A DNA stretch of 64,000 nt. Origin: Gemmatimonadota bacterium (lineage in GTDB: Bacteria > Gemmatimonadota > Gemmatimonadetes > Gemmatimonadales > GWC2-71-9). Below, in pieces: positions 18,651 through 29,086 of the stretch. How positions within the stretch are numbered: position 1 is the first letter of the stretch; each line of letters begins with the position of its first letter. The position numbers and the translations under genes are program-made. The stretch lies in NCBI GenBank assembly GCA_027294455.1, contig JAPULZ010000056.1, positions 27,854 through 91,853 on the forward strand, written 5' to 3'. The notes under the pieces were generated by a model. That model made no database searches, had not been told where the DNA came from, and worked only from the letters and a program-made list of their open reading frames with translations.

Positions 18651-20273
18651 CTACTGCCTTACCCGAAGCCGCTGCCCAACCTGCAACAGGCTCTCGTTCG
18701 CTCCCATACCGTTCCAGTCCCTGAGATCGCTCACCTGGAGGCCGTAGCGCTGCGAGATGATCCAGAGGGTGTCTCCCCGCCGCACGGTATGGTATCCACT
18801 GGGCGGAACGCTCGCCCGGGCGATGCGGGTCCTGCGTCCGGTGCGCGCCGCGCGGCCGACCGGGATGACCAATCGCGTGCCGACATACATCCGTCTGGGC
18901 TGGACGCGGGGGTTCGCGGCCTGGAGGGCGCCGAGGGACACGCGGTAGCGCCGCGCGATCTCGCCCAGGGTTTCGCCCCGCCGCACGACGTGGTCCAGGA
19001 AATTCACCCGCTCGGAGGCTGGGAGCTCCTCGTAGAGACGCGCGACCATCGTGCCCGTGCCGCGGGGCACGCGGACGATGGCTTCTTCCCGCGGCGGCGT
19101 CGCCCCGCGGAAGTACTGGGGATTCAACTCGTTGATGGCCCGCACGGTCGTGTCGGCGAGCTGCGCGATGACGTCGAGACCGGTTTGATCCGGCACCGTG
19201 ATCTCATCGAACACCAACGGCTCGAGCAGCGGGATATTGCGGAACCCATAGCGCTCGGGGTCCTGGGCGACCATGGTCGCCGCGATTAGCTTGGGGACGT
19301 AATCCCTGGTTTCGCGACGGAGATAACGCCGGTCTGACAGGGCGAAGAACATTTCGTCGGACACGTCCTGATCGGGAAGACGCTGAATGCCCCGGGAAAC
19401 CGAGCCGGCCCCCGCATTGTAAGCCGCCGCCGCCAGGTACCACGCCCCGAACTCCTCTTGCAAATCCACCAGATGTCGCGCGGCCGCATCAGTGGCCTTG
19501 AAGGGATCGCGCCGCTCGTCCACCCAGCTTGTAATCCGCAGATCGTAGCCCCGCCCCGTCGACCTTACGAACTGCCACATGCCAACCGCATAGGACCGCG
19601 AGACGGCAGTATTGGAGTAGCCGCTTTCGATCAGGGCCAGATACAACAGCTCTTGAGGCAAGCCGTACCGCTGCAGGGCGGCCGTGATCATTCCCTCGTA
19701 GCGCCCGAGCCGGCCCAACCAGATGTTGAAGCGATTGCGCGACGGCCCGAGGAAATAGTCGACGTAGTAGCGGACGCGCCGGTGATCGGCGAACGACTCG
19801 ATATCCAAGGAGGCGGCGGCGGTCCCGCCACCCGACCCGCCCGTGGTGGTCCACTCTTCCGGATAATCGGTGGCGGGGTCCGCCGCGGGGAGCGTCCCGC
19901 GCAGGTGATCGGCGCCCTTGGCGAGGCTGGTGAACTCCAGCTCGCGCAGCGCCACCAGGGCAGCCTCGTCCGCCGCAGAGTCGGACACCGCAATCGTCTG
20001 CACCACCGGGAACTGAGACTCTTCCGTCCGAGGCACCGCGCCGAACTGAGGATGAGATGCCACCGGCGCCGACGACCCGCCCGCACACGCAGAAAGGAAC
20101 ATCACGCCCATCACCGTCCCCGAGGCCGGTAGCAAGCCGCGGGCCCGGCGGGCGGCGACCCAGCGAATCGAAGCAAACCCGATCAAGCGCACACCTCCAT
20201 ATGACGTTCCTAAACACACCGGCTCAACCATACCATAGAGCGCGTGGTTTCCAGGAGCGGTGATGGAACGCAC
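18651..20273 (-). CDS. Membrane-bound lytic murein transglycosylase D-like lipoprotein with two C-terminal LysM domains
   Basis: SLT block IESGYSNTAVSRSYAVGMWQF and AAAYNAGAGSV. Two LysM repeats (HVVRRGETLGEIARRY…, YHTVRRGDTLWIISQRY…). A lipobox FLSAC is present. The true start may be internal (GTG near 20192). Confidence 0.85.
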   Translation of the reverse strand: MRSITAPGNHALYGMVEPVCLGTSYGGVRLIGFASIRWVAARRARGLLPASGTVMGVMFLSACAGGSSAPVASHPQFGAVPRTEESQFPVVQTIAVSDSAADEAALVALRELEFTSLAKGADHLRGTLPAADPATDYPEEWTTTGGSGGGTAAASLDIESFADHRRVRYYVDYFLGPSRNRFNIWLGRLGRYEGMITAALQRYGLPQELLYLALIESGYSNTAVSRSYAVGMWQFVRSTGRGYDLRITSWVDERRDPFKATDAAARHLVDLQEEFGAWYLAAAAYNAGAGSVSRGIQRLPDQDVSDEMFFALSDRRYLRRETRDYVPKLIAATMVAQDPERYGFRNIPLLEPLVFDEITVPDQTGLDVIAQLADTTVRAINELNPQYFRGATPPREEAIVRVPRGTGTMVARLYEELPASERVNFLDHVVRRGETLGEIARRYRVSLGALQAANPRVQPRRMYVGTRLVIPVGRAARTGRRTRIARASVPPSGYHTVRRGDTLWIISQRYGLQVSDLRDWNGMGANESLLQVGQRLRVRQ

Positions 20274-20276
20274 AAA

Positions 20277-20699
20277 TCAACTCGAGAAGGTCGTAACCCC
20301 GAGAAAGCGATTTGTGGCATTGAGGACCGCGATCGCCGCCGCACGGGTCGGATCTTCTTCCGCAAGATACGAGCCGACGAGGCGTCGTGGTGCTTGATCC
20401 CGTCCGACCAACAGGGCGACGATCACGACGATGGCGTCAAACGCCTTCACCGCGTGGACGCCGATCAGCTCGAATCGGCCATCGGACGGCCGCATGGCCT
20501 GGTGGAGCGCATCGATGGTCGCGAGGGCGGCGCACCGAAGATGATCGGCATCGGGTTCGGCGCAGTCCGCGCGCCCGGTGAAGGACTGACCGGGGCGTAT
20601 CTGGAGCTCGACGCGGGCGGCATGGGCACCGGCGTCCGGGGTCTCGACTTCGAGGCTCAGGAACCTGAGACGTTGCGATGCGCTGTCCGCCATTTCCAT
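20277..20699 (-). CDS. Hypothetical protein (140 aa), possibly with a dsRBD-like fold
   Basis: Coding-like composition. Ends 3 nt before the MltD-like ORF. The pattern …RCAALATIDALHQA…AAAIAVLNATNRFL loosely resembles dsRBD-fold proteins. Weak assignment. Confidence 0.45.
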   Translation of the reverse strand: MEMADSASQRLRFLSLEVETPDAGAHAARVELQIRPGQSFTGRADCAEPDADHLRCAALATIDALHQAMRPSDGRFELIGVHAVKAFDAIVVIVALLVGRDQAPRRLVGSYLAEEDPTRAAAIAVLNATNRFLGVTTFSS

Positions 20700-20752
20700 T
20701 CCTCCAGACTACCCCCCCGGCCCTTCCGTCGGGCCGAAGGCGGAAACCGCGA

Positions 20753-21013
20753 TTAGGTTTCGGCCTTGAAGTGGACTTCGAGCTGGCTCCGCGAATGTTG
20801 CTCCGGCATGTGAAGCACGTCCACGTCCAATCGGGAGACGCCGCCTTCATCCACCACCGAGACCAGGAGGGTTCTGCCATCTTCCAGCATGATGCGCAGC
20901 TGGCGGCAGTCCGAACGGATCTTCACATCCTGCACGTGGCGGTCGCGCAATTGATCCACGGCTTCGGTGATGCGACGCAGATCTTGCACGGAGGTGATGG
21001 CGGTAGGTGACAT
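20753..21013 (-). CDS. Hypothetical small protein (86 aa)
   Basis: ATG 21013 (MSPTAITSVQDL…). Third-position GC is high and the composition is balanced. Lies in series with neighbouring small ORFs on the same strand. Confidence 0.45.
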   Translation of the reverse strand: MSPTAITSVQDLRRITEAVDQLRDRHVQDVKIRSDCRQLRIMLEDGRTLLVSVVDEGGVSRLDVDVLHMPEQHSRSQLEVHFKAET

Positions 21014-21026
21014 GGTGACCGTGGGC

Positions 21027-21272
21027 TCAGGTGTTGTGTTGTTGCAAGACCTGCCGCAGTTCGTCGTCGCGAATACGATCGGCCAGGCGGAACAGTAAGG
21101 TCTTCGATCCCGACTCCAGCGGATACGCCGTCCAAAAGGCCCTGGCCTCGGCCCCCCCTTGCTGGCGCCGAAACGAGAGCGAAAGCCGCCAGCTGCGCTC
21201 GTCCGGCCGGCGCTCTGCCGCCGGCTGCACATGCCACACCTCATCTTCTGTGTCGATTACTCTCCACACCAT
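21027..21272 (-). CDS. Hypothetical small protein (81 aa)
   Basis: ATG 21272 (MVWRVIDTEDEVWHV…). Coding-like codon usage. Lies 13 nt upstream of the next small ORF. Confidence 0.4.
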   Translation of the reverse strand: MVWRVIDTEDEVWHVQPAAERRPDERSWRLSLSFRRQQGGAEARAFWTAYPLESGSKTLLFRLADRIRDDELRQVLQQHNT

Positions 21273-21342
21273 TGAATTGGAACCTCGGTGGATGGACGAA
21301 TCGGGCAGCGCGGGCGAATATCGCCCGTCGTACGGTACACGG

Positions 21343-21669
21343 TCAAGGGGGCCACAGATCCAGTGCGGTGAGATCGTCGAGACGGTCGACATCGCGTAGC
21401 TCCGGCAGAAGCACCGGAGCGTCAGCCCCCACGGCGAGCACCGACCGATCCGGACGCCGGGCGAAATGCCCCTGGAAACCGAACGCGATGCTGGCGCCAA
21501 GATCCCCCTCGGGTTGTGGGCGAAACCGGTACTCCCCGAGCCACGCCCGCATCTCGGCGAGTGCGTCTGGGCGGATGGTACCAGATAGTGAGTGAGGAGA
21601 CGGGCGCGACTTGACGGCGCCGGCGCGCGGCGCGCGCGCAAAGAGCACCACAGAGATCACGGCAGGCAC
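21343..21669 (-). CDS. Abbreviated DUF2064-like (TIGR04282-type glycosyltransferase) ORF, possibly a decayed gene
   Basis: It keeps the N-terminal VVLFARAPRAGAVKSR motif, the central GDLG…GADAP motif and the C-terminal L.DVD..DDL motif. All of this sits in only 108 aa, versus about 200 aa for the family as I recall it. Confidence 0.4.
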   Translation of the reverse strand: MPAVISVVLFARAPRAGAVKSRPSPHSLSGTIRPDALAEMRAWLGEYRFRPQPEGDLGASIAFGFQGHFARRPDRSVLAVGADAPVLLPELRDVDRLDDLTALDLWPP

Positions 21670-21687: not shown

Positions 21688-23871
21688 TCAGGCGGCCTTC
21701 ACAGCCTCCAGTTTCGCCATGACGGGCGGTAAGGGACTTGCGGAGGAGGAATGATCGAACGAAAGCACGTCCATCGGGCATACATCGATGCAGATACCAC
21801 ACTGAATGCATCCGGAGTTCCGGTTGTCGAACGACGCACCGCTCTTGGCAAACGCCATCACGTCCACCCCGACCTGGCAATACCGGCTGCACATGGTGCA
21901 CGAGATGCAGTGCTCGTTCGACTTGATGGTGAGACGACCGTACCAACGGGCCAAGACTTGATTCCAAGCAGCGAGCGGGCACCAGTACCGGCACCACACC
22001 TTGCCACCAAAAAAGGGATACAGCGCGATGGGAATCACGGCGATGAGCCAGAATTCGACCATATACTGGTACGACTGCATCCAGATGTTGTCGGCGCGGG
22101 TCTTGAACATCCCCACCGTCACGACCGTGGCAATCGTAGCTGCCACCAACACCACGGCTCCCTGGAATTCCCAAGAGCGGCTTCGCTTGCCCTTCGGTGC
22201 CAGATGCCGCCAGCGATCACCCAGGGTTTCCGCGAGCCCACCGCAGCCACAAATCCACGTGCAGAAGCGTTTGCCGTGGTTGCGACTCGCCCAGGGGATG
22301 GCGATGAACGTCAAGAAGAGACCGGCGCCGATGAACCCGTACACGATGAATTTCGGATCCGACGTGCTGAACCAGTTGAACGTGCTGATGGACAGGGGCC
22401 AAGGTTGCGAGAGGCCCCACGCTCGCCAGGAGTACTGGACGGTCAGGGCCTGCACCGCGACCACGTTGGCAATGAGAAAGAACCCAACCTGGAAGCTCGT
22501 CAGCGAGATAAAGCGCCACTTCTGGTACCGGTTGTCGCGGGCAATCGAACTCCACCGATAAAACGCCTGGTAGCCGAGCGCGGCGAACGCCACCGTGTAC
22601 AGCAAGCTGTAGAGGTACCCCTGCTGAAACCACAGCGTCCCGTAGATGTCTTGCCGCGCTTGTTCGTCAAAGATCCAGGAGAACGGCAGAAACGCGATAC
22701 CGAACAACCGCTGCACGACCCCGCTGAAACTCTCGAGAGAAAAGAAGTGGTTGAACGGCCAGGCGTAGGGCAACTCAGGAAATTTCTTGAGCCCGTACAG
22801 GGAATACGTAAAGAGGAATGCGAGGCCCAAATAGACCCACCGCCGTACATACCAATCACCTTCGAGCCTGATCCCGATGCGCCGAAAGAAGGGAAGCGGT
22901 AGCTCCGCGCCGATCATCTCGAACACCACGTCGTTCGGAACCGTCTGCTCCCGCCCGGCGGCGTCGCGAAACGTGACCGACGCCGTCTCGACCCGTTCCA
23001 GCGTACTCGAAAGATGCAAGTCGAGCCGCCCGGCAGCTTGCTCCGCCAGCAGGGCAGTGACGTTGCGCTTGCGCGGAAACGTCAACGCCGCGTCGACGGT
23101 CACCATGGTGACCTCGTTGGTCTTGCAGAGCGCCAGCGCCGCTTCGGCCGCAACGTCCCCGCCGCCGTAGATGAAAATGCGCTTGCCGGTGTACCGATCC
23201 GGATCGGCGAGGTGATGCTTGATCCGGTCGGCGTGTTCCGCCTCGCCCGTCGCACCGGCTTTGCGCGGGTTGCCCGCCATCCCGACGGCCAAAATGACGC
23301 GGCGGGCCCGATACGCACGGCGAGCGGATTCCACCACGAAGTGTCCGTCTCGCTGCTGGATATCGGTGACGTTCTCGTGTTCGTGCACCGCGAGGCCGGC
23401 ATCGCTGACCTGCCGCCGCCACCGTTCGAGGAGCTCCTCGCGAGTGCACTCTTCGAACCACATGGTACTGCGGTTGGGGACGCGGTCGGGCTCAGCGAAG
23501 AGGATCTTGCCCTTATACATATTGTGCACGGTCGTGGCGATCCGATCCGAGTCCAGGACCAGGTATCGCATGCCCAGCTCGTGCGCTCGCATGGCCGCGC
23601 CGAGGCCCGAGGAGCCGGCACCCACGACCACGACATCCAACAACTCCGGATCGCTCTCCACCGGCGGGCCCAGCTCGGCCCGGAGCCGATTCGCGAGATC
23701 GACCCCTTCGTTGAGTCCCAGCTTGATGAGAGGGGTGCCGCCGATATCCCCCGTCAGATAGAGGCCCGAGATCGAGCTTTCCCGGTTCTCATCGACTTCC
23801 GGCAGCACAGGGTACGAGGGATCCGGCTGCTTCGGGCCGAAGAGCGTACGAATTTGGGTCGAGAAAGTCAC
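21688..23871 (-). CDS. Fusion protein: FAD/NAD(P)-binding pyridine-nucleotide oxidoreductase domain + polytopic NapH/CcoG-like polyferredoxin membrane domain
   Basis: GxGxxG motifs VVVVGAGSSGLGAA and IFIYGGGDVAAEAA are followed by multiple TM helices. Cys motifs follow: CTWICGCGG, CRYWCPLAAW, CISCTMCSRYCQ and CIQCGICIDVCP (4Fe-4S type). The start is GTG 23871, the first start codon after an in-frame TAG, so the N-terminus is uncertain. Confidence 0.8.
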   Translation of the reverse strand: MTFSTQIRTLFGPKQPDPSYPVLPEVDENRESSISGLYLTGDIGGTPLIKLGLNEGVDLANRLRAELGPPVESDPELLDVVVVGAGSSGLGAAMRAHELGMRYLVLDSDRIATTVHNMYKGKILFAEPDRVPNRSTMWFEECTREELLERWRRQVSDAGLAVHEHENVTDIQQRDGHFVVESARRAYRARRVILAVGMAGNPRKAGATGEAEHADRIKHHLADPDRYTGKRIFIYGGGDVAAEAALALCKTNEVTMVTVDAALTFPRKRNVTALLAEQAAGRLDLHLSSTLERVETASVTFRDAAGREQTVPNDVVFEMIGAELPLPFFRRIGIRLEGDWYVRRWVYLGLAFLFTYSLYGLKKFPELPYAWPFNHFFSLESFSGVVQRLFGIAFLPFSWIFDEQARQDIYGTLWFQQGYLYSLLYTVAFAALGYQAFYRWSSIARDNRYQKWRFISLTSFQVGFFLIANVVAVQALTVQYSWRAWGLSQPWPLSISTFNWFSTSDPKFIVYGFIGAGLFLTFIAIPWASRNHGKRFCTWICGCGGLAETLGDRWRHLAPKGKRSRSWEFQGAVVLVAATIATVVTVGMFKTRADNIWMQSYQYMVEFWLIAVIPIALYPFFGGKVWCRYWCPLAAWNQVLARWYGRLTIKSNEHCISCTMCSRYCQVGVDVMAFAKSGASFDNRNSGCIQCGICIDVCPMDVLSFDHSSSASPLPPVMAKLEAVKAA

Positions 23872-24113: not shown

Positions 24114-24311
24114 CTATCCCCTACCCGGCGGGGGCGGGCCAAAGACGGGATCGGGCATGTTCATGCCCCCACCACCCCCCATGTCCATCATGGAGGGCAT
24201 GCCCTGACCCGCGAGAGCGGGCGGCGCGGCGAGCGAAACCATGACCGGAGCGGTGTAGACGGCCCCCGTCGCTAACTTCTTCAAGAACTCGCGCCGATCG
24301 TGGGATCTCAT
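24114..24311 (-). CDS. Small Tat-signal peptide/protein (65 aa) with a Met/Gly/Pro-rich mature region ending in GRG
   Basis: MRSHDRREFLKKLATGAVYTAPVMVSLAAPPALA carries the twin-arginine motif RREFLK, an h-region and an AxA site. The mature part is GQGMPSMMDMGGGGGMNMPDPVFGPPPPGRG. AGGTGA lies a few nt upstream of ATG 24311, which is 8 nt after the methyltransferase stop. Confidence 0.6.
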   Translation of the reverse strand: MRSHDRREFLKKLATGAVYTAPVMVSLAAPPALAGQGMPSMMDMGGGGGMNMPDPVFGPPPPGRG

Positions 24312-24318
24312 CACTCAC

Positions 24319-25479
24319 CTACACCTTGTTGGCAATGGACGTCTCGACCCTGCCCTGGAGAGCCGCGAGGACCTCTCGTTGCGCTAGCTCGGAACTCAAC
24401 TCCGGGTGGGCTCCGCGCAGCGCTTCGGCAATTTCGCCCATGGTCCTCGCACCGTCGGTGAGGGACAACACGTCGCACTCGAGCGCGCCGTGCCGTCCGA
24501 GCCTCGGAACCGCATCGGGGCTCAAGCCTGCGAGGTCGTGCAACGATGCCGGGGCCGCGGCGAACTCGTTGCCCTGTACCGTGCGTCCACCGGCTTCCAA
24601 GCTCCAAGCAAGCCAGCCAGGCGTTCCGTCGTCTGATGCGCTAGATCCGACGCTCGCACGGAGCACTTCTCCGACTCCCACGGACAGGGGCGGATCGGCC
24701 ATCAGCACCGTATTGCCCCAGGATCCCGGCTCGGCGCCCGGCGCGTTAGAAAGCCATTCCCCGGGAGCGAGCTCCAGGTCGAACCACAGCGCCAATCCGT
24801 CGATGGAGCCTGCCCGGTCCATGCGCCATTCCGCCGTACCGTGCAACGCCGCCCTCGGATCGGGAGCCCGATCGAACCGCACCTCCCCGAGGGCAACCGG
24901 GTCCGCCACCAGATCGTCGCTGACCATGTCCACCGACACGGGCGCGTTGACCGCGTACTCCCGGCTGGGACTCCAATCGATCCCGTATACCACTTCGGTG
25001 TCGAGATCCGCGAACGACAATACGGCCCGGCGCACGCGATCGGACCGGATGGGCGCCAGCATGAGCCGGGCCCGACACGGGACGGTACGCACTTCCCCCA
25101 CGGCATAATCTCGCAACAACGTCTCGAGCAAGCGAACATTGCCGGCGTCGAGGAGGCGCGGGGCGAAATCCTCGAAGATGACGACGTCACACCGCTCGGG
25201 TATCGTCAGTCTCGGAATCCATCCCCTCAGGAACTCTATGCGGTCGGCGTACCCGTTCACCACCCCGATGGCTTTTGCCACGTGCACGATCGGTGTCCCG
25301 TCCACGGCCCAGACGCGGCCGGCCCCCGCATCGGCGGCGAAGAACGCAAACGTCCCCAGTCCCGTCCCGACCTCCAACACCCGATCGCCGGGCCGTACCA
25401 CGGCGTGAATGGCGCGGCGAAAAGCCTCGATGCGCTTCTCTTGGGCCAACATGCCCCGGTAGTGCTGCATCATGCTCAT
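24319..25479 (-). CDS. PRMT-like class I SAM methyltransferase with a C-terminal PqqD/RRE-like domain
   Basis: Motif I is VLEVGTGLGTFAFFAADAGAGRVWAVD. There is an acidic loop VVIFEDF…LLD and a beta-barrel-like region with SWGNTVL, which resembles the PRMT THW loop. The C-terminal about 70 aa (VLSLTDGARTMGEIAEAL…VLAALQ) resembles PqqD. ATG 25479 overlaps the PqqD stop (ATGA). Confidence 0.75.
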   Translation of the reverse strand: MSMMQHYRGMLAQEKRIEAFRRAIHAVVRPGDRVLEVGTGLGTFAFFAADAGAGRVWAVDGTPIVHVAKAIGVVNGYADRIEFLRGWIPRLTIPERCDVVIFEDFAPRLLDAGNVRLLETLLRDYAVGEVRTVPCRARLMLAPIRSDRVRRAVLSFADLDTEVVYGIDWSPSREYAVNAPVSVDMVSDDLVADPVALGEVRFDRAPDPRAALHGTAEWRMDRAGSIDGLALWFDLELAPGEWLSNAPGAEPGSWGNTVLMADPPLSVGVGEVLRASVGSSASDDGTPGWLAWSLEAGGRTVQGNEFAAAPASLHDLAGLSPDAVPRLGRHGALECDVLSLTDGARTMGEIAEALRGAHPELSSELAQREVLAALQGRVETSIANKV

Positions 25480-25757
25480 TGCAGCAGTCCCGCCCGGGCA
25501 AATTCGGAGACGACGCCCTCCACGTCCTGCTCGAGGGTATCGGCCGGCGCCGACCCGGTGAATGCCTCACGCACCTCCCCGGCGATCTCGCCCAGGGTGA
25601 GGCTGCCGCTGCAATGCGCCCAGACCAGGGAGGCCGTGAGGTTCAGCACGTGCATCTTGTTGTCACGGGGATCGAAGAGCACCCACTCCTCATCGAGCTG
25701 ACGAAACACGACGTCGCCCCGGGCTTTGGGGCGTTGCGGCATCTTGGGCGTCGCCAT
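25476..25757 (-). CDS. PqqD-family protein (RiPP recognition element-like)
   Basis: VVFRQLDEEWVLFDPRDNKMHVLNLTASLVWAHCSGSLTLGEIAGEV…DVEGVVSEFARAGLL matches the PqqD pattern. I start at ATG 25757; ATG 25742 is also possible. Confidence 0.8.
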   Translation of the reverse strand: MATPKMPQRPKARGDVVFRQLDEEWVLFDPRDNKMHVLNLTASLVWAHCSGSLTLGEIAGEVREAFTGSAPADTLEQDVEGVVSEFARAGLLQ

Positions 25758-25812
25758 CGTCGTAAGATGGGCACTCACGGATTGGGCGGCAACGATGACA
25801 ACCGGCCGGGCC

Positions 25813-26916
25813 TCACCGGCGGCGGAGCTTGCCGGCGACGCTCGACGCGTGCCGCCCCCAGGCATGCAGCCGCGAGCCGGCGTCGGGCCATCGCCAGGCG
25901 AGGTGCGAGCGTGGAGGCACCAGTACGTCGGCCAGGAGCTTCCAGAGCCCGCTCCAGCGGTCGATGACGCCCAAACGCCGGCGTATCCGCCCCGGGGTGA
26001 TCGTCACGGCCTCCTCCGACGGGGTGGCGAGGGCCAACCGCACGAGGCCGCGTAGGTCCGATGCACCGATCTGGCTCGCACGCCAGTCCCACTCCGGCTG
26101 GATGCCTGGGGTCTGCGGCAAGTCAAACTCCCGGGAGACGATTCCCCCGAGCACGCGAACGGCCCGCAGCGCTCCCACCTCCCGCGCCACGGCTTCCACC
26201 TTGGCGCCGGCGCCGGTCGAAAGCCGCTGCCACAGCAGGGTGAAATCGATGATGCCCTTGAGATGGAGCATGTCGTGATGTGCCACGTGATGGGCGAGCA
26301 ACACCAGGTGGCACTCGTCGCTCGGAGCGATGAGCGCCTCGCCGCCGAGTGAGTCCCACACGACCTTCGGTATGGCCACCGTCGCACGGGGCAGCAATCT
26401 GTCCAACGGCTCCACCGCCCAGTGAAGATCGACGGTCACCGTTTCGATGTCGGTGCCCCCGGCCTCCCGGTGCAAGACGCAGGCACCGCGCAGGTCGGGA
26501 GGGCCCGGTTGTTCGTCCTCGGGCGCCGGTCGATACCCCAGCGCGGCCAAGGCCGCCAGGGCGGCCTCGCGAGCCGGCGGCGTCACATGAACATCGATGT
26601 CCTGGAGGTCTCGGTCGCCCACCTGGTAGACCGGCCCGAGGAGCGCGATGCCCTTGTAAAAAAAATGCGGGACGTCGGCCTGTTGGAACGCCGCTCCCAG
26701 CTCGAGGGCTGCGTCCCGCAGGATCGCCGCTTCGAGCCCTCGGTAGACCCGCCGCTCACGTACCCCGTCCGCCTCGAGGTCGAGGCAGCGGGCGAGGTAT
26801 CCCTCGAACCCGAAGTCTCTGGCAAGCTCGAGCGCCCGGGTGGGTCCCTTGCGCCCGACCTCGGCGGCCACATCGTCCAACGCGGACAGCAGGGTAGCCG
26901 CGACCGGCTCGGTCAT
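25813..26916 (-). CDS. Uncharacterised nucleotidyltransferase family protein (NTP_transf_5-like)
   Basis: DIDVHVTPP…ALAALGY, VDLHWAV and LLAHHVAHHDMLHLKGIIDF are blocks typical of PF14907-type proteins. ATG 26916 overlaps the upstream stop (ATGA). Confidence 0.75.
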   Translation of the reverse strand: MTEPVAATLLSALDDVAAEVGRKGPTRALELARDFGFEGYLARCLDLEADGVRERRVYRGLEAAILRDAALELGAAFQQADVPHFFYKGIALLGPVYQVGDRDLQDIDVHVTPPAREAALAALAALGYRPAPEDEQPGPPDLRGACVLHREAGGTDIETVTVDLHWAVEPLDRLLPRATVAIPKVVWDSLGGEALIAPSDECHLVLLAHHVAHHDMLHLKGIIDFTLLWQRLSTGAGAKVEAVAREVGALRAVRVLGGIVSREFDLPQTPGIQPEWDWRASQIGASDLRGLVRLALATPSEEAVTITPGRIRRRLGVIDRWSGLWKLLADVLVPPRSHLAWRWPDAGSRLHAWGRHASSVAGKLRRR

Positions 26917-27776
26917 GAGGACGCCACTTCGGAAAGGACGCGGACGGCCTCGTCCGCCCCGCCGAACCGAACCTCGACGGCGCCCGCCTTGTTCATCAAA
27001 TCCGCGAGACGTGAAAACGCGTCGGCTTTCTCGAGGCCGGTCTCGAAGCAACTGTGTACCAGAAGGCTCAGTCCATCGGCGGAGCTCATCGCTTTGACGC
27101 TCAATCCCTCGCCGGCGACGAATCTCACAAGCGCCACTACCTTCACCGGGGCCGGCTCGGCCCATCCCCCGGCCTGCGCGGGATCGAACCACGCCTCCTC
27201 CGACGCAGCACCCCAAAACGCCGTACCCGCAGGATCCACACCGAACCGGCGGAGCAGATCCGGATCCGACTTGAACAGCCGCTTGAAGGGCGCGGCGATG
27301 CCGTCATCGCCGATCAGCACCAGATCGTCGCCGAACGCCGGCAACCCGCTGAGACTGCCATGGGTGGCGAGGCTCGATTTCCCGGCGCCCGAAGGTCCGA
27401 GGACGATCACCGCTCCGGCATCGGCCGCCCACCCCGAAGCGTGAAGTTGCACCGAGTTGGCGCAGCCTTCGAGAAATACCTCGGTGAGGCAGTACTCGCA
27501 GTCGTCAACGAACGCGTCGAATGTGGCACAGAAGACGGGTTCGGGCCGGGAGGGCGTCTTGATCGACCACCCCCCGTCGTTGCACTCCACCCGTAGCGTC
27601 ACGCCCTCGCCATCTCGTGGGCCCGCCGTCGAGACCACCGCGTAAGCCGGAAACATGCTGCGTACCGCTTCACGGGTCGCAGGATCCGGCACCTCCACTC
27701 GGTGGCGCACGCCCATGACGTCGAACTCGATCGCCGTTAAACCGTTGTTATTCAACATGTTAGGTAGCACGGGCAC
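26913..27776 (-). CDS. HPr(Ser) kinase C-terminal-domain-like P-loop protein
   Basis: VIVLGPSGAGKSSLATHG…FGDDLVLI parallels the HprK/P block G.SG.GKSE.AL.L…G..LV.DD.V. Confidence 0.75.
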   Translation of the reverse strand: MPVLPNMLNNNGLTAIEFDVMGVRHRVEVPDPATREAVRSMFPAYAVVSTAGPRDGEGVTLRVECNDGGWSIKTPSRPEPVFCATFDAFVDDCEYCLTEVFLEGCANSVQLHASGWAADAGAVIVLGPSGAGKSSLATHGSLSGLPAFGDDLVLIGDDGIAAPFKRLFKSDPDLLRRFGVDPAGTAFWGAASEEAWFDPAQAGGWAEPAPVKVVALVRFVAGEGLSVKAMSSADGLSLLVHSCFETGLEKADAFSRLADLMNKAGAVEVRFGGADEAVRVLSEVASS

Positions 27777-28251: not shown

Positions 28252-28311
28252 GACGTCTCTCCTCACTCCGGCGGCGCCCTGCGGCGGCCGAACATTCGCT
28301 CGCTCGGGGAG

Positions 28312-28384
28312 TGACCGGGGTGGGTCTCGAACCCACGACCTACGGATTAAAAGTCCGTTGCTCTGCCAGCTGAGCTACCCGGTC
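28312..28384 (-). tRNA. tRNA-Lys (anticodon TTT)
   Basis: The reverse complement folds as acceptor gaccggg/cccggtc, D-arm agctcagctggcagagc, anticodon loop cTTTTAa and T-arm gtgggttcgagacccac. Confidence 0.9.
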
Positions 28385-28540
28385 GGCCAAAAAAAACATC
28401 GCTAGAGGAGGGTGGATACACAAGCACATTTTCATAGGGGAAAATCGCCCAACAAAAGCTTGTTCTCCCCGAAGAAACACTTACTTTGGTGTCCGATTGG
28501 GGCTGGTCATGCTACAGAAACTTCTTTTCTCGAGGGGGCA

Positions 28541-29086
28541 ATGGCTGCAAAACGAAGAAAAAAAGCCAAGAGGAAGGTGACGAAGCGCAAGGCCACCAAG
28601 CGCAAGGGCACGAAGCGCAAGGCTACCAAGCGCAAAGCCACCAAGCGCAAGGCAACGAAGAAGAAGAAGGCCACCAAGCGCAAGGCAACGAAGAAGAAGA
28701 AGGCCACCAAGCGGAAGGCCAAGAAGAAAAAAGCCACCAAGCGCAAGGCCACCAAGCGCAAACCCGCCAAAAAGAAGAAAGCGACCAAGCGCAAGGCGAC
28801 CAAGCGCAAAGCCGCCAAGAAGAAAAAGACCAAGCGCAAGCCGAACGCGGCGTTCATGAGGCCGTTGCAGCCGGATGCCGCGCTCTCACTGGTGGTGGGC
28901 AGCAAGCCGTTGCCGCGAACGGAGGTCACCAAGAAGCTTTGGCAATACATTCGCAAACACGGCCTGCAGGACAACGTAGACCGCCGCATGATCAATGCGG
29001 ACGCAAACTTGAAGGCCGTCTTCAGCGGCAAATCTCAAGTGAGCATGTTCGAAATGACGAAGCTGGTGAACTACCACATGAAGTAA
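28541..29086 (+). CDS. SWIB/MDM2-domain protein with an N-terminal lysine-rich histone-H1-like repeat region
   Basis: About 100 aa of (K/R)KATKRK repeats are followed by LPRTEVTKKLWQYIRKHGLQD…INAD..LK.VF…V.MFEM.KLV, a SWIB domain. I start at ATG 28541 (MAAKRRKK…). Confidence 0.85.
   Translation: MAAKRRKKAKRKVTKRKATKRKGTKRKATKRKATKRKATKKKKATKRKATKKKKATKRKAKKKKATKRKATKRKPAKKKKATKRKATKRKAAKKKKTKRKPNAAFMRPLQPDAALSLVVGSKPLPRTEVTKKLWQYIRKHGLQDNVDRRMINADANLKAVFSGKSQVSMFEMTKLVNYHMK
28550..28840 (+). repeat. In-frame tandem coding repeat (about 15-nt gccaccaagcgcaag units, including a 33-nt duplication)
   Basis: aagcgcaaggccaccaag-type units recur many times. The unit ggcaacgaagaagaagaaggccaccaagcg[c/g]aa occurs twice back to back. 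Confidence 0.8.

Follow-up and report, generated by a model that had tools for sequence, protein, structure and literature searches.

The 64-kb stretch of Gemmatimonadota contig JAPULZ010000056.1 analyzed here (64% G+C, referred to as the window) carries a five-gene operon on its minus strand that ends with a small open reading frame (ORF) for a 65-aa peptide. Read along that strand, the gene order is an HprK-like kinase, a PF14907 nucleotidyltransferase, a PqqD-type recognition element for peptides made on the ribosome and modified after translation (RiPPs), a methyltransferase with the fold of protein arginine methyltransferases (PRMTs), and the peptide gene in the last position. The five genes are as follows.

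26913-27776, minus strand: P-loop protein of 287 aa resembling HprK-related kinases, with GPSGAGKS as its Walker A motif; TIGR04352 (HprK_rel_A)
25813-26916, minus strand: nucleotidyltransferase; PF14907 (NTP_transf_5), E = 3e-21
25476-25865, minus strand: discrete PqqD-type RiPP recognition element (RRE); longest ORF 129 aa, domain from residue 50; PF05402, E = 3e-13
24319-25479, minus strand: PRMT-fold methyltransferase dependent on S-adenosylmethionine (SAM), 386 aa; PF22528 (PRMT_C), E = 6e-9
24114-24311, minus strand: predicted precursor peptide gene, 65 aa plus stop; called from its ORF, its G+C content at third codon positions (GC3), its homologs and its position 3' of the methyltransferase gene

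The kinase stop codon and the nucleotidyltransferase start overlap as ATGA, and so do the RRE stop and the methyltransferase start. The precursor ATG lies 7 nt past the methyltransferase stop, and the five-gene operon is translationally coupled. The longest ORF of the nucleotidyltransferase (25813-27216) overlaps the kinase gene by approximately 300 nt; its true start is likely the ATG at 26916, which overlaps the kinase stop. Similarly, the RRE gene may start at ATG 25757 rather than at 25865. Comparison of the kinase and the nucleotidyltransferase with PDB sequences gave no useful match, and a promoter and terminator scan of the operon yielded nothing informative.

The precursor ORF begins with ATG at 24311 and ends with the stop codon at 24116-24114. 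Its translation, MRSHDRREFLKKLATGAVYTAPVMVSLAAPPALAGQGMPSMMDMGGGGGMNMPDPVFGPPPPGRG, is the one given in the original prediction, and its strand is minus. The Shine-Dalgarno-like AGGTGA noted earlier is present 3 nt 5' of the ATG; an in-frame GTG at 24314 is an alternative start which would add one residue. G+C content by codon position is 0.64/0.55/0.81 and the neighboring genes have GC3 values of 0.77-0.80. The overlapping frame 24121-24318, which the original prediction had named as a competitor for the conserved gene, was ruled out because its GC3 is 0.56 compared to 0.81 in the precursor frame; conservation also tracks the precursor frame. The peptide has no Pfam or NCBIfam family match at E≤0.01, and its homologs, where named by their sources, are labeled hypothetical proteins. 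The small gene is real and conserved.

With the methyltransferase as bait, 68 genome loci were fetched, and the four closest relatives, which encode the same PPPPGRG peptide, were added to give 72 loci. The original prediction depended on a conserved small ORF beside PRMT-like genes in relatives. A leader hidden Markov model (HMM) detected such an ORF directly 3' of the methyltransferase gene in all Gemmatimonadota/Longimicrobiales loci having downstream sequence (41/41). The precursor start often overlaps the methyltransferase stop as ATGA in homologous loci, and the order kinase, nucleotidyltransferase, RRE, methyltransferase and peptide is kept across Gemmatimonadota. The same HMM found the precursor ORF in Poribacteria, Methylomirabilota, a Pseudomonadota metagenome-assembled genome (MAG), Nitrospinota, Acidobacteriota and an unclassified MAG. 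When 1.84 billion representative proteins were searched exhaustively by profile, 119 clusters at 50% identity were returned, almost all of them 50-130 aa in length. In the reverse test, peptides retrieved by their sequence alone (P0213, P0188, P0004, P0005 and P0008) were all encoded directly 3' of a PRMT_C methyltransferase gene. A word-indexed search identified nine precursor homologs with the near-invariant C-terminus MPDPVFGPPPPGRG and two more sequences that share the leader and carry a different Met-rich core. One borderline peptide match, P0244 (locus L071), is found without methyltransferase context and is probably not a family member. In P0211 (446 aa) a single ORF joins the methyltransferase to the precursor, which could be a natural fusion or a frameshift/assembly artefact.

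Family statistics were compiled from 165 non-identical sequences, 161 of which bear the leader motif and 160 of which were scored for the cleavage region and core. The elements of the window peptide are listed below.

24276-24296, minus strand: twin-arginine motif R6-R7-E-F-L-K-K12, leader n-region
24246-24257, minus strand: Y19-T-A-P22, predicted [Y/W]xxP RRE-binding motif, in the hydrophobic part of the leader
24204-24215, minus strand: predicted leader cleavage site L33-A-G35↓Q36, from the -3/-1 rule of signal peptidase I
24117-24206, minus strand: predicted core (mature) peptide QGMPSMMDMGGGGGMNMPDPVFGPPPPGRG, 30 aa
24192-24194, minus strand: Ser40, candidate phosphorylation site in the predicted core

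The leader is conserved while the middle of the peptide is hypervariable. The family consensus (S/T)-R-R-x-F-L-K follows that of the twin-arginine translocation (Tat) pathway, and the window leader reads D-R-R-E-F-L-K-K. The basic pair is RR in 156 of 161 members, RK in four and KR in one (the variants are among L032, L060, P0154, P0155, P0210 and P0240). F is found at +2 after the pair in 149/161 and L at +3 in 142/161, followed by K or R in 74%. Curated signal models run over 31 members matched 11 (TIGR01409), 15 (TIGR02811) and two (PF10518) of them. The basic pair is located exactly 13 residues before a [Y/F/W/I]xxP motif in 161 of the 165 sequences, with Tyr as its first residue in 152; P22 never varies, and conservation of Y19 is 90% or higher. 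The leader includes an uncharged stretch of 22 residues (LATGAVYTAPVMVSLAAPPALA) with a mean hydropathy of 1.35. L/A/V occupies position 15 (numbered from the Tyr) in 152/160, A/G/S position 17 in 151/160 and Gln position 18 in 113/160. We infer from this pattern a signal peptidase I site that obeys the -3/-1 rule, with predicted cleavage at L-A-G↓Q in the window. An alternative predicted site is A-L-A34↓G35, which was the choice of the original prediction; for the resulting 31-residue mature part the counts of 6 Met, 7 Pro and 1 Arg are correct, and Gly is 10 instead of 11.

The window operon was compared with the linear polyphosphorylated peptides (LPP RiPPs) of Bacillota, represented by Paenibacillus alginolyticus LppA/K/B/S/D/N (Popov et al., Nat Commun 2026, PMC13381572). 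LPP genes encode the HprK-like kinase LppK, the nucleoside triphosphate (NTP) transferase LppN, the discrete RRE LppB, the SipW-type peptidase LppS and the MsbA-like exporter LppD; the published domain table lists NTP_transf_5, TIGR04249/04352/04355, PqqD, TIGR02228 and TIGR02203/4 (PMC13381572). The precursors have a conserved N-terminal YxxPxVLxHQxIxFETxxS and variable C-termini (PMC13381572). LppB binds YxxP, and LppK polyphosphorylates Ser3 of a core starting with A-Q-S (position 19 from Tyr). Binding of [Y/W]xxP to LppB and to lasso B1 RREs was demonstrated by crystallography and mutagenesis, and LPPs were stated to be restricted to Bacillota, with function unknown (PMC13381572).

Three components are common to LPP and the window operon: the HprK-like kinase (TIGR04352-type), NTP_transf_5 (PF14907) and the discrete PqqD RRE. 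The one significant PDB match of the window RRE was LppB itself (9x8z_B, E = 3e-4). Window N75, kept in 63/63 sequences, is the counterpart of LppB N33, the residue that holds the kink at the leader Pro in place; window D114, kept in 38/42 from Gemmatimonadota, is the counterpart of LppB D70, which forms a hydrogen bond with the leader Tyr. On the peptide side, both families have an N-terminal [Y]xxPx[V/L] leader motif and a hypervariable C-terminal part, and in both the cleavage site (predicted here) falls 16-17 residues past the Tyr with a Ser soon after. Ser or Thr occurs at positions 18-23 from Tyr in 151/160 members, within six residues of the cleavage site, and the peptides of L003, L008, L010 and L036 read A-Q-S at positions 17-19, a spacing identical to LppA. 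Some clusters of both kinds are embedded in polysaccharide loci: here the module lies inside an exopolysaccharide locus in L048 (Wzz/BY-kinase, CpsB) and is followed by a GT4-GGDEF protein in L040. The two families also differ. The LPP consensus beyond YxxPxV is not shared, and a search of the leader profile against PDB chains, aimed at the LppA leader, gave no meaningful match. The window family adds an N-terminal Tat consensus, the PRMT-fold methyltransferase and a C-terminal P-W-x-x-P-P-P-G core motif. LPPs belong to Bacillota and their phosphorylation has been seen; the window family occurs in other phyla and its phosphorylation is predicted.

A further difference lies in export and processing genes. 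In the Longimicrobiales locus L029 (5622-9332) the whole five-gene module is located between rpoC and rpsL/rpsG, an unusual site for an accessory cluster. Neither a SipW-type leader peptidase (TIGR02228) nor an MsbA-like/ABC exporter was found in the window operon or in this bounded module. Since the L029 module is enclosed by housekeeping genes, the system is made up of the four enzymes and the peptide, and no dedicated protease or exporter belongs to it.

The original prediction called the 386-aa gene upstream of the peptide PRMT-like, which is correct at the fold level. A profile built from 22 methyltransferase homologs matched PRMT6, CARM1, PRMT1, PRMT3 and PRMT8 with E-values of 1e-41 to 1e-32 over approximately 300 positions (PRMT6, 1e-41). 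The AlphaFold model (pLDDT 88, pTM 0.75) matched PRMT1/6/8/CARM1/HMT1 in Foldseek at E ~1e-27 with target-normalised TM-scores of 0.74-0.81. The Rossmann SAM domain and the beta-barrel are both present and the SAM-binding motifs are intact. Residue conservation was counted over 120 family members. The first double-E-loop Glu (E103) and the THW-loop Trp (W254) are each found in 120/120. These are features shared with eukaryotic type I PRMTs (PRMT1, PRMT6, CARM1 and HMT1). In contrast to those enzymes, the alignment column of the second double-E Glu is variable (the neighboring position is Asp in 83/120), and the THW loop reads GSW, with S253 in 105/120 and no His. As the second Glu is not kept and the THW His is replaced by Ser, arginine specificity cannot be assumed. 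The bacterial gene also differs in being fixed in a RiPP operon and in encoding an extra C-terminal three-helix domain (about residues 329-374) that is weakly PqqD-like (14 bits; 23.6 bits in homolog P0110). This domain was considered as a second RRE; the PqqD similarity is weak and the assignment was left as suggestive.

More distant PRMT-fold homologs (24-28% identity) are found in Neomarinimicrobiota/Fidelibacterota and in unclassified MAGs (L044, L047, L049-L059, L061-L063 and L065). In these loci a PqqD gene is nearby, no leader-type peptide was detected, and the methyltransferase gene is followed by polysaccharide-type genes (ABC-2 permease, glycosyltransferases or a flippase-like protein). 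The methyltransferase and PqqD pairs of the Neomarinimicrobiota-type loci may act on a different substrate.

The family cores are of low complexity: Pro accounts for about 19% of residues, Gly for 18%, Ser for 10% and Met for 8%, and Leu, Ile, Tyr and Cys are nearly absent. Met/Gly repeats, poly-His, Lys/Gly repeats and an FCDYFPxxC motif recur as core types. A C-terminal P-[W/F]-x-x-P-P-P-G signature is common (PW in 108/160, PPG/PPP in 104/160), and the window PVFGPPPPGRG can be read as its local form plus a short variable tail. Arg is found in 116 of 160 cores and is missing from 44, 13 of which lack Lys as well; in 42/110 (38%) it falls no more than five residues past the C-terminal Pro motif. 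Eight of 160 cores end in GRG, and P0144, from another subfamily, ends in PPPPPGRG. With 44 cores free of Arg and eight with this terminus, GRG was rejected as a conserved substrate motif. Met makes up at least 10% of the core in 47/160 (29%). The window core has six Met with MxM/MM spacing and no Cys; Met-rich cores occur in several lineages (e.g., L017, L030b, L045, L060 and P0188), and P0137 is His-rich. In the window's subclade, the Met-rich core may plausibly bind metal. Cys is present in 25/160 cores. A MMMTFCDYFPxxCxxFGW motif is found in a subset (P0226, P0233, P0237, P0246, P0214, L030 and L051), which suggests a distinct structured or cross-linked subclass. At L030 (9165-9695) two tandem precursors have the same leader and different cores, one with the FCDYFPxxC motif and the other with a long (MG)n repeat.

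Taken together, the 65-aa ORF is probably the precursor of a five-gene RiPP-type operon, a Gemmatimonadota-centred relative of LPP in which a Tat-type leader is combined with RRE docking. That the peptide is a dedicated substrate of the upstream enzymes, as the original prediction proposed in one of its two readings, is supported by translational coupling and full co-occurrence, and by the match between the peptide, which has a YxxP motif, and an RRE in which the residues that grip YxxP are kept. The leader appears to serve as both the enzyme docking site and the twin-arginine export signal: the first 35 residues would stack the Tat consensus, the YxxP motif 13 residues on within the hydrophobic stretch, and the signal peptidase I-type site. 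The gene, its operon structure, conservation, motif architecture and enzyme folds and families are observed, and from them we infer the following enzymatic, export and cleavage steps. In the cytoplasm, the RRE would bind Y19-x-x-P22 and present the peptide to the enzymes. The kinase would phosphorylate Ser40 past the cleavage site, as LppK does on Ser3, and the nucleotidyltransferase may elaborate the phosphate. The PRMT-fold enzyme would add one or more methyl groups to the peptide. The Tat pathway, which tolerates cargo matured in the cytoplasm, could then export the pre-modified peptide, and a housekeeping signal peptidase would remove the leader. The predicted product is a disordered Pro/Gly/Met-rich peptide of about 30 residues with an N-terminal Gln. 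Tat and signal peptidase I would thus stand in for the MsbA-like exporter and SipW-like peptidase of LPP, and such a route would account for the absence of a dedicated exporter and peptidase.

Several points weigh against this explanation. All of the evidence comes from sequence and synteny. TIGR04352 matches the kinase weakly (E = 1.5e-11; 44 bits, well short of the equivalog cutoff of 200), the RRE match to LppB is modest at 24 bits, both proteins resemble their LPP counterparts distantly, and LppN, the counterpart of the nucleotidyltransferase, is an uncharacterised NTP transferase (PMC13381572). In most members the conserved Ser is 1-4 residues farther from YxxP than in LPP. The leader had been described as a textbook twin-arginine signal. 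The Tat assignment draws on motif statistics: the consensus is matched family-wide, and the resemblance is genuine but borderline for the curated model, the window peptide scoring 15.7 bits with TIGR01409, just under the cutoff of 16.7. Acidic residues in the c-region (e.g., ELVG) are atypical for Tat signals, and a regex scan found no credible tatA or tatC genes in the 64-kb window.

The region downstream of the peptide gene bears on the second reading of the original prediction, in which the peptide partners the neighboring polyferredoxin. The gene in question is the following.

21688-23871, minus strand: flavin adenine dinucleotide (FAD) oxidoreductase-polyferredoxin fusion, 727 aa; YpdA/thioredoxin-reductase-like (Pyr_redox_3) plus NapH/MauN-type membrane polyferredoxin

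A gap of 240 nt separates it from the precursor gene. Searches with phmmer and tblastn found no homolog of the fusion in the 68 related loci nor in the four closest PPPPGRG relatives. Because of this absence, the FAD/polyferredoxin protein is not regarded as a partner of the peptide, and its gene beside the peptide operon looks like a genome-specific insertion. In the four closest relatives a pseudopilin gene follows the precursor instead. The pseudopilin-like pair (prepilin motif GFTVVELLMV) lies directly 3' of the precursor in L001 (7676-8583), L030 (10158-11083), L072 (3033-3976) and L073-L075; that is, in the window's closest relatives and two other loci, and it is missing from the window. 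Farther downstream, 18651-21300 (minus strand) encodes three small proteins of unknown function and a LysM-SLT lytic transglycosylase, a block conserved across Gemmatimonadota (L002, L003, L006 and others). The slot between the peptide gene and this block is variable: it can be empty or hold a 4.5-kb insert, the pseudopilin pair or the polyferredoxin gene. The 4.5-kb insert of other Gemmatimonadota loci encodes a Pyr_redox_2 oxidoreductase, VTT/DedA, DUF547, a GT2 protein and DUF2064, with the DUF2064 gene at its end. A DUF2064 remnant is present in the window at 21343-21669 (minus strand); it is 108 aa long instead of 197 aa with an internal deletion (compare L006, 13214-13807). The operon is preceded upstream by a small membrane ORF, a tRNA-Lys gene and a SWIB-domain gene. 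The last (28412-29086, plus strand) encodes a 224-aa protein in which a long Lys/Ala-rich repeat (KRKATKRKATKKKKATKRKA...) is fused to a C-terminal SWIB/MDM2 domain, and the tRNA-Lys gene (28311-28384) adjoins it.

It is unlikely that the mature, Met-rich product binds Cu(I) in the periplasm and works with the downstream FAD/polyferredoxin protein. The six Met with their MxM/MM spacing, the recurrence of Met-rich cores across lineages and of His-rich cores elsewhere, and the NapH/MauN-type domain of the neighbor would fit such a role, and bufferins provide a precedent of signal-peptide RiPPs acting as periplasmic copper chelators (PMC11626156). The restriction of the polyferredoxin gene to this genome among the loci compared, its distance from the precursor and the limited share of Met-rich cores argue against it. 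Copper genes, cop and cus included, turned up neither in the window (regex scan) nor in the related loci. When compared with Met-rich Cu(I) proteins (CusF, CopC/PcoC and the CueO insert), the peptide has a Met tract, but its core is of low complexity and matches no family. The other proposal made earlier, that the PRMT-like enzyme methylates the single Arg (R64) of the C-terminal G-R-G before Tat export, seems rather improbable. In its favor are the genuine PRMT fold with intact SAM motifs and the first catalytic Glu, the coupling of the methyltransferase gene to the peptide gene, the frequency of Arg in the cores and its placement after the Pro motif, and the recurrence of the same terminus in P0144. 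As a family rule it fails: the methyltransferase is always present although Arg is absent from 44 cores, 13 of which lack Lys too, few cores end in GRG, and two PRMT catalytic signatures are missing. Methylation of R64 in this one peptide is possible.

Two other explanations concern the leader and the relation of the ORF to its neighbors. R-R-x-F-L-K-K might be a cytoplasmic leader recognised by the enzymes rather than an export signal, and the product would then stay inside or, once cleaved by an unlinked protease, leave by an unlinked transporter. Conservation of the whole leader, its hydrophobic part included, far exceeds that of ordinary Tat signals, the fixed spacing of 13 from RR to Y is what an enzyme-recognition element would have, and the sub-threshold TIGR01409 score and the five RK/KR variants point the same way. 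We consider this improbable, given that every Tat consensus position is matched, that an uncharged stretch and a -3/-1 signal peptidase site come after the motif, and that neither an exporter nor a protease belongs to the module even when it sits between housekeeping genes, while LPP clusters carry both. The notion that the ORF is spurious, or encodes an ordinary small protein exported by Tat, and has no relation to the upstream enzymes is consistent with its lack of family matches and the hypothetical status of its homologs. It can hardly be reconciled with the coding-type GC3, the translational coupling and 41/41 co-occurrence with the methyltransferase, the pairing of the YxxP motif with conserved RRE contact residues, and an association that spans several phyla and genomic contexts. 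The twin arginines of the leader are the only arginines conserved across the whole precursor family. A speculative extension, to which we give little credence, is that the PRMT-fold enzyme methylates one of them, gating or timing Tat export, and that the RRE acts as a Tat proofreading chaperone.

The favored explanation, an LPP-like precursor with a Tat-type leader, has partial parallels in other systems. Tat proofreading chaperones such as TorD, DmsD and NapD bind the Tat signal peptides of cofactor enzymes. There too a cytoplasmic protein would sit on a Tat leader before export, and export follows maturation; here the predicted binder is a PqqD/winged helix-turn-helix RRE on YxxP, and maturation would be a covalent modification of the peptide. 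Paeninodins, which are phosphorylated lasso peptides, carry the phosphorylated Ser at the C-terminus; they likewise use a discrete RRE on [Y/W]xxP and tailoring by an HprK-like kinase and an NTP transferase. The operon and the bounded module encode neither a lasso cyclase (asparagine-synthetase-like macrolactam synthetase) nor a B2 cysteine peptidase. Bufferins are RiPP precursors with a Sec signal peptide as leader, an arrangement called rare by the authors (PMC11626156). Bufferins and oxazolins (PMC11626156, PMC12452194) resemble the window family in having a general-secretion-type leader and no dedicated exporter or protease, and their products are periplasmic and metal-binding. Bufferins differ in the use of Sec instead of Tat and in their MNIO/DUF692 and DUF2063 partners, which act on Cys; none of these is found in the window operon. 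The cores of bufferins are small folded proteins that contain Cys, whereas the cores described here are rich in Pro and Gly and predicted to be disordered. A literature search on HprK-related kinase systems, Tat-signal RiPPs and bacterial PRMT homologs returned nothing describing this family. Systems of the HPr-kinase, nucleotidyltransferase, twin-arginine or Gemmatimonadota kind go unmentioned in RRE-Finder and in an RRE survey from 2025, and neither a Tat-signal RiPP precursor nor a leader combining enzyme docking with twin-arginine export was found in the literature searched.

If the favored explanation is true, the LPP-like kinase/nucleotidyltransferase/RRE system extends beyond Bacillota to Gemmatimonadota and at least five other phyla. 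Two features would distinguish it from LPP, the PRMT-fold methyltransferase and the Tat-type leader with an embedded RRE-docking motif. With the leader fused to a Tat signal, general export and signal peptidase would replace a dedicated exporter and protease. Even without methylation of the twin arginines this would be the first RiPP class exported via Tat, with its docking motif lying within the signal peptide. Precursor finders that drop signal-peptide proteins would miss this class in genome mining. A bacterial PRMT-fold enzyme tied to a defined small substrate makes the chemistry directly testable. The hypervariable Met-, His-, Lys/Gly-rich and Cys-motif cores may serve diversified extracytoplasmic roles, possibly including metal binding.

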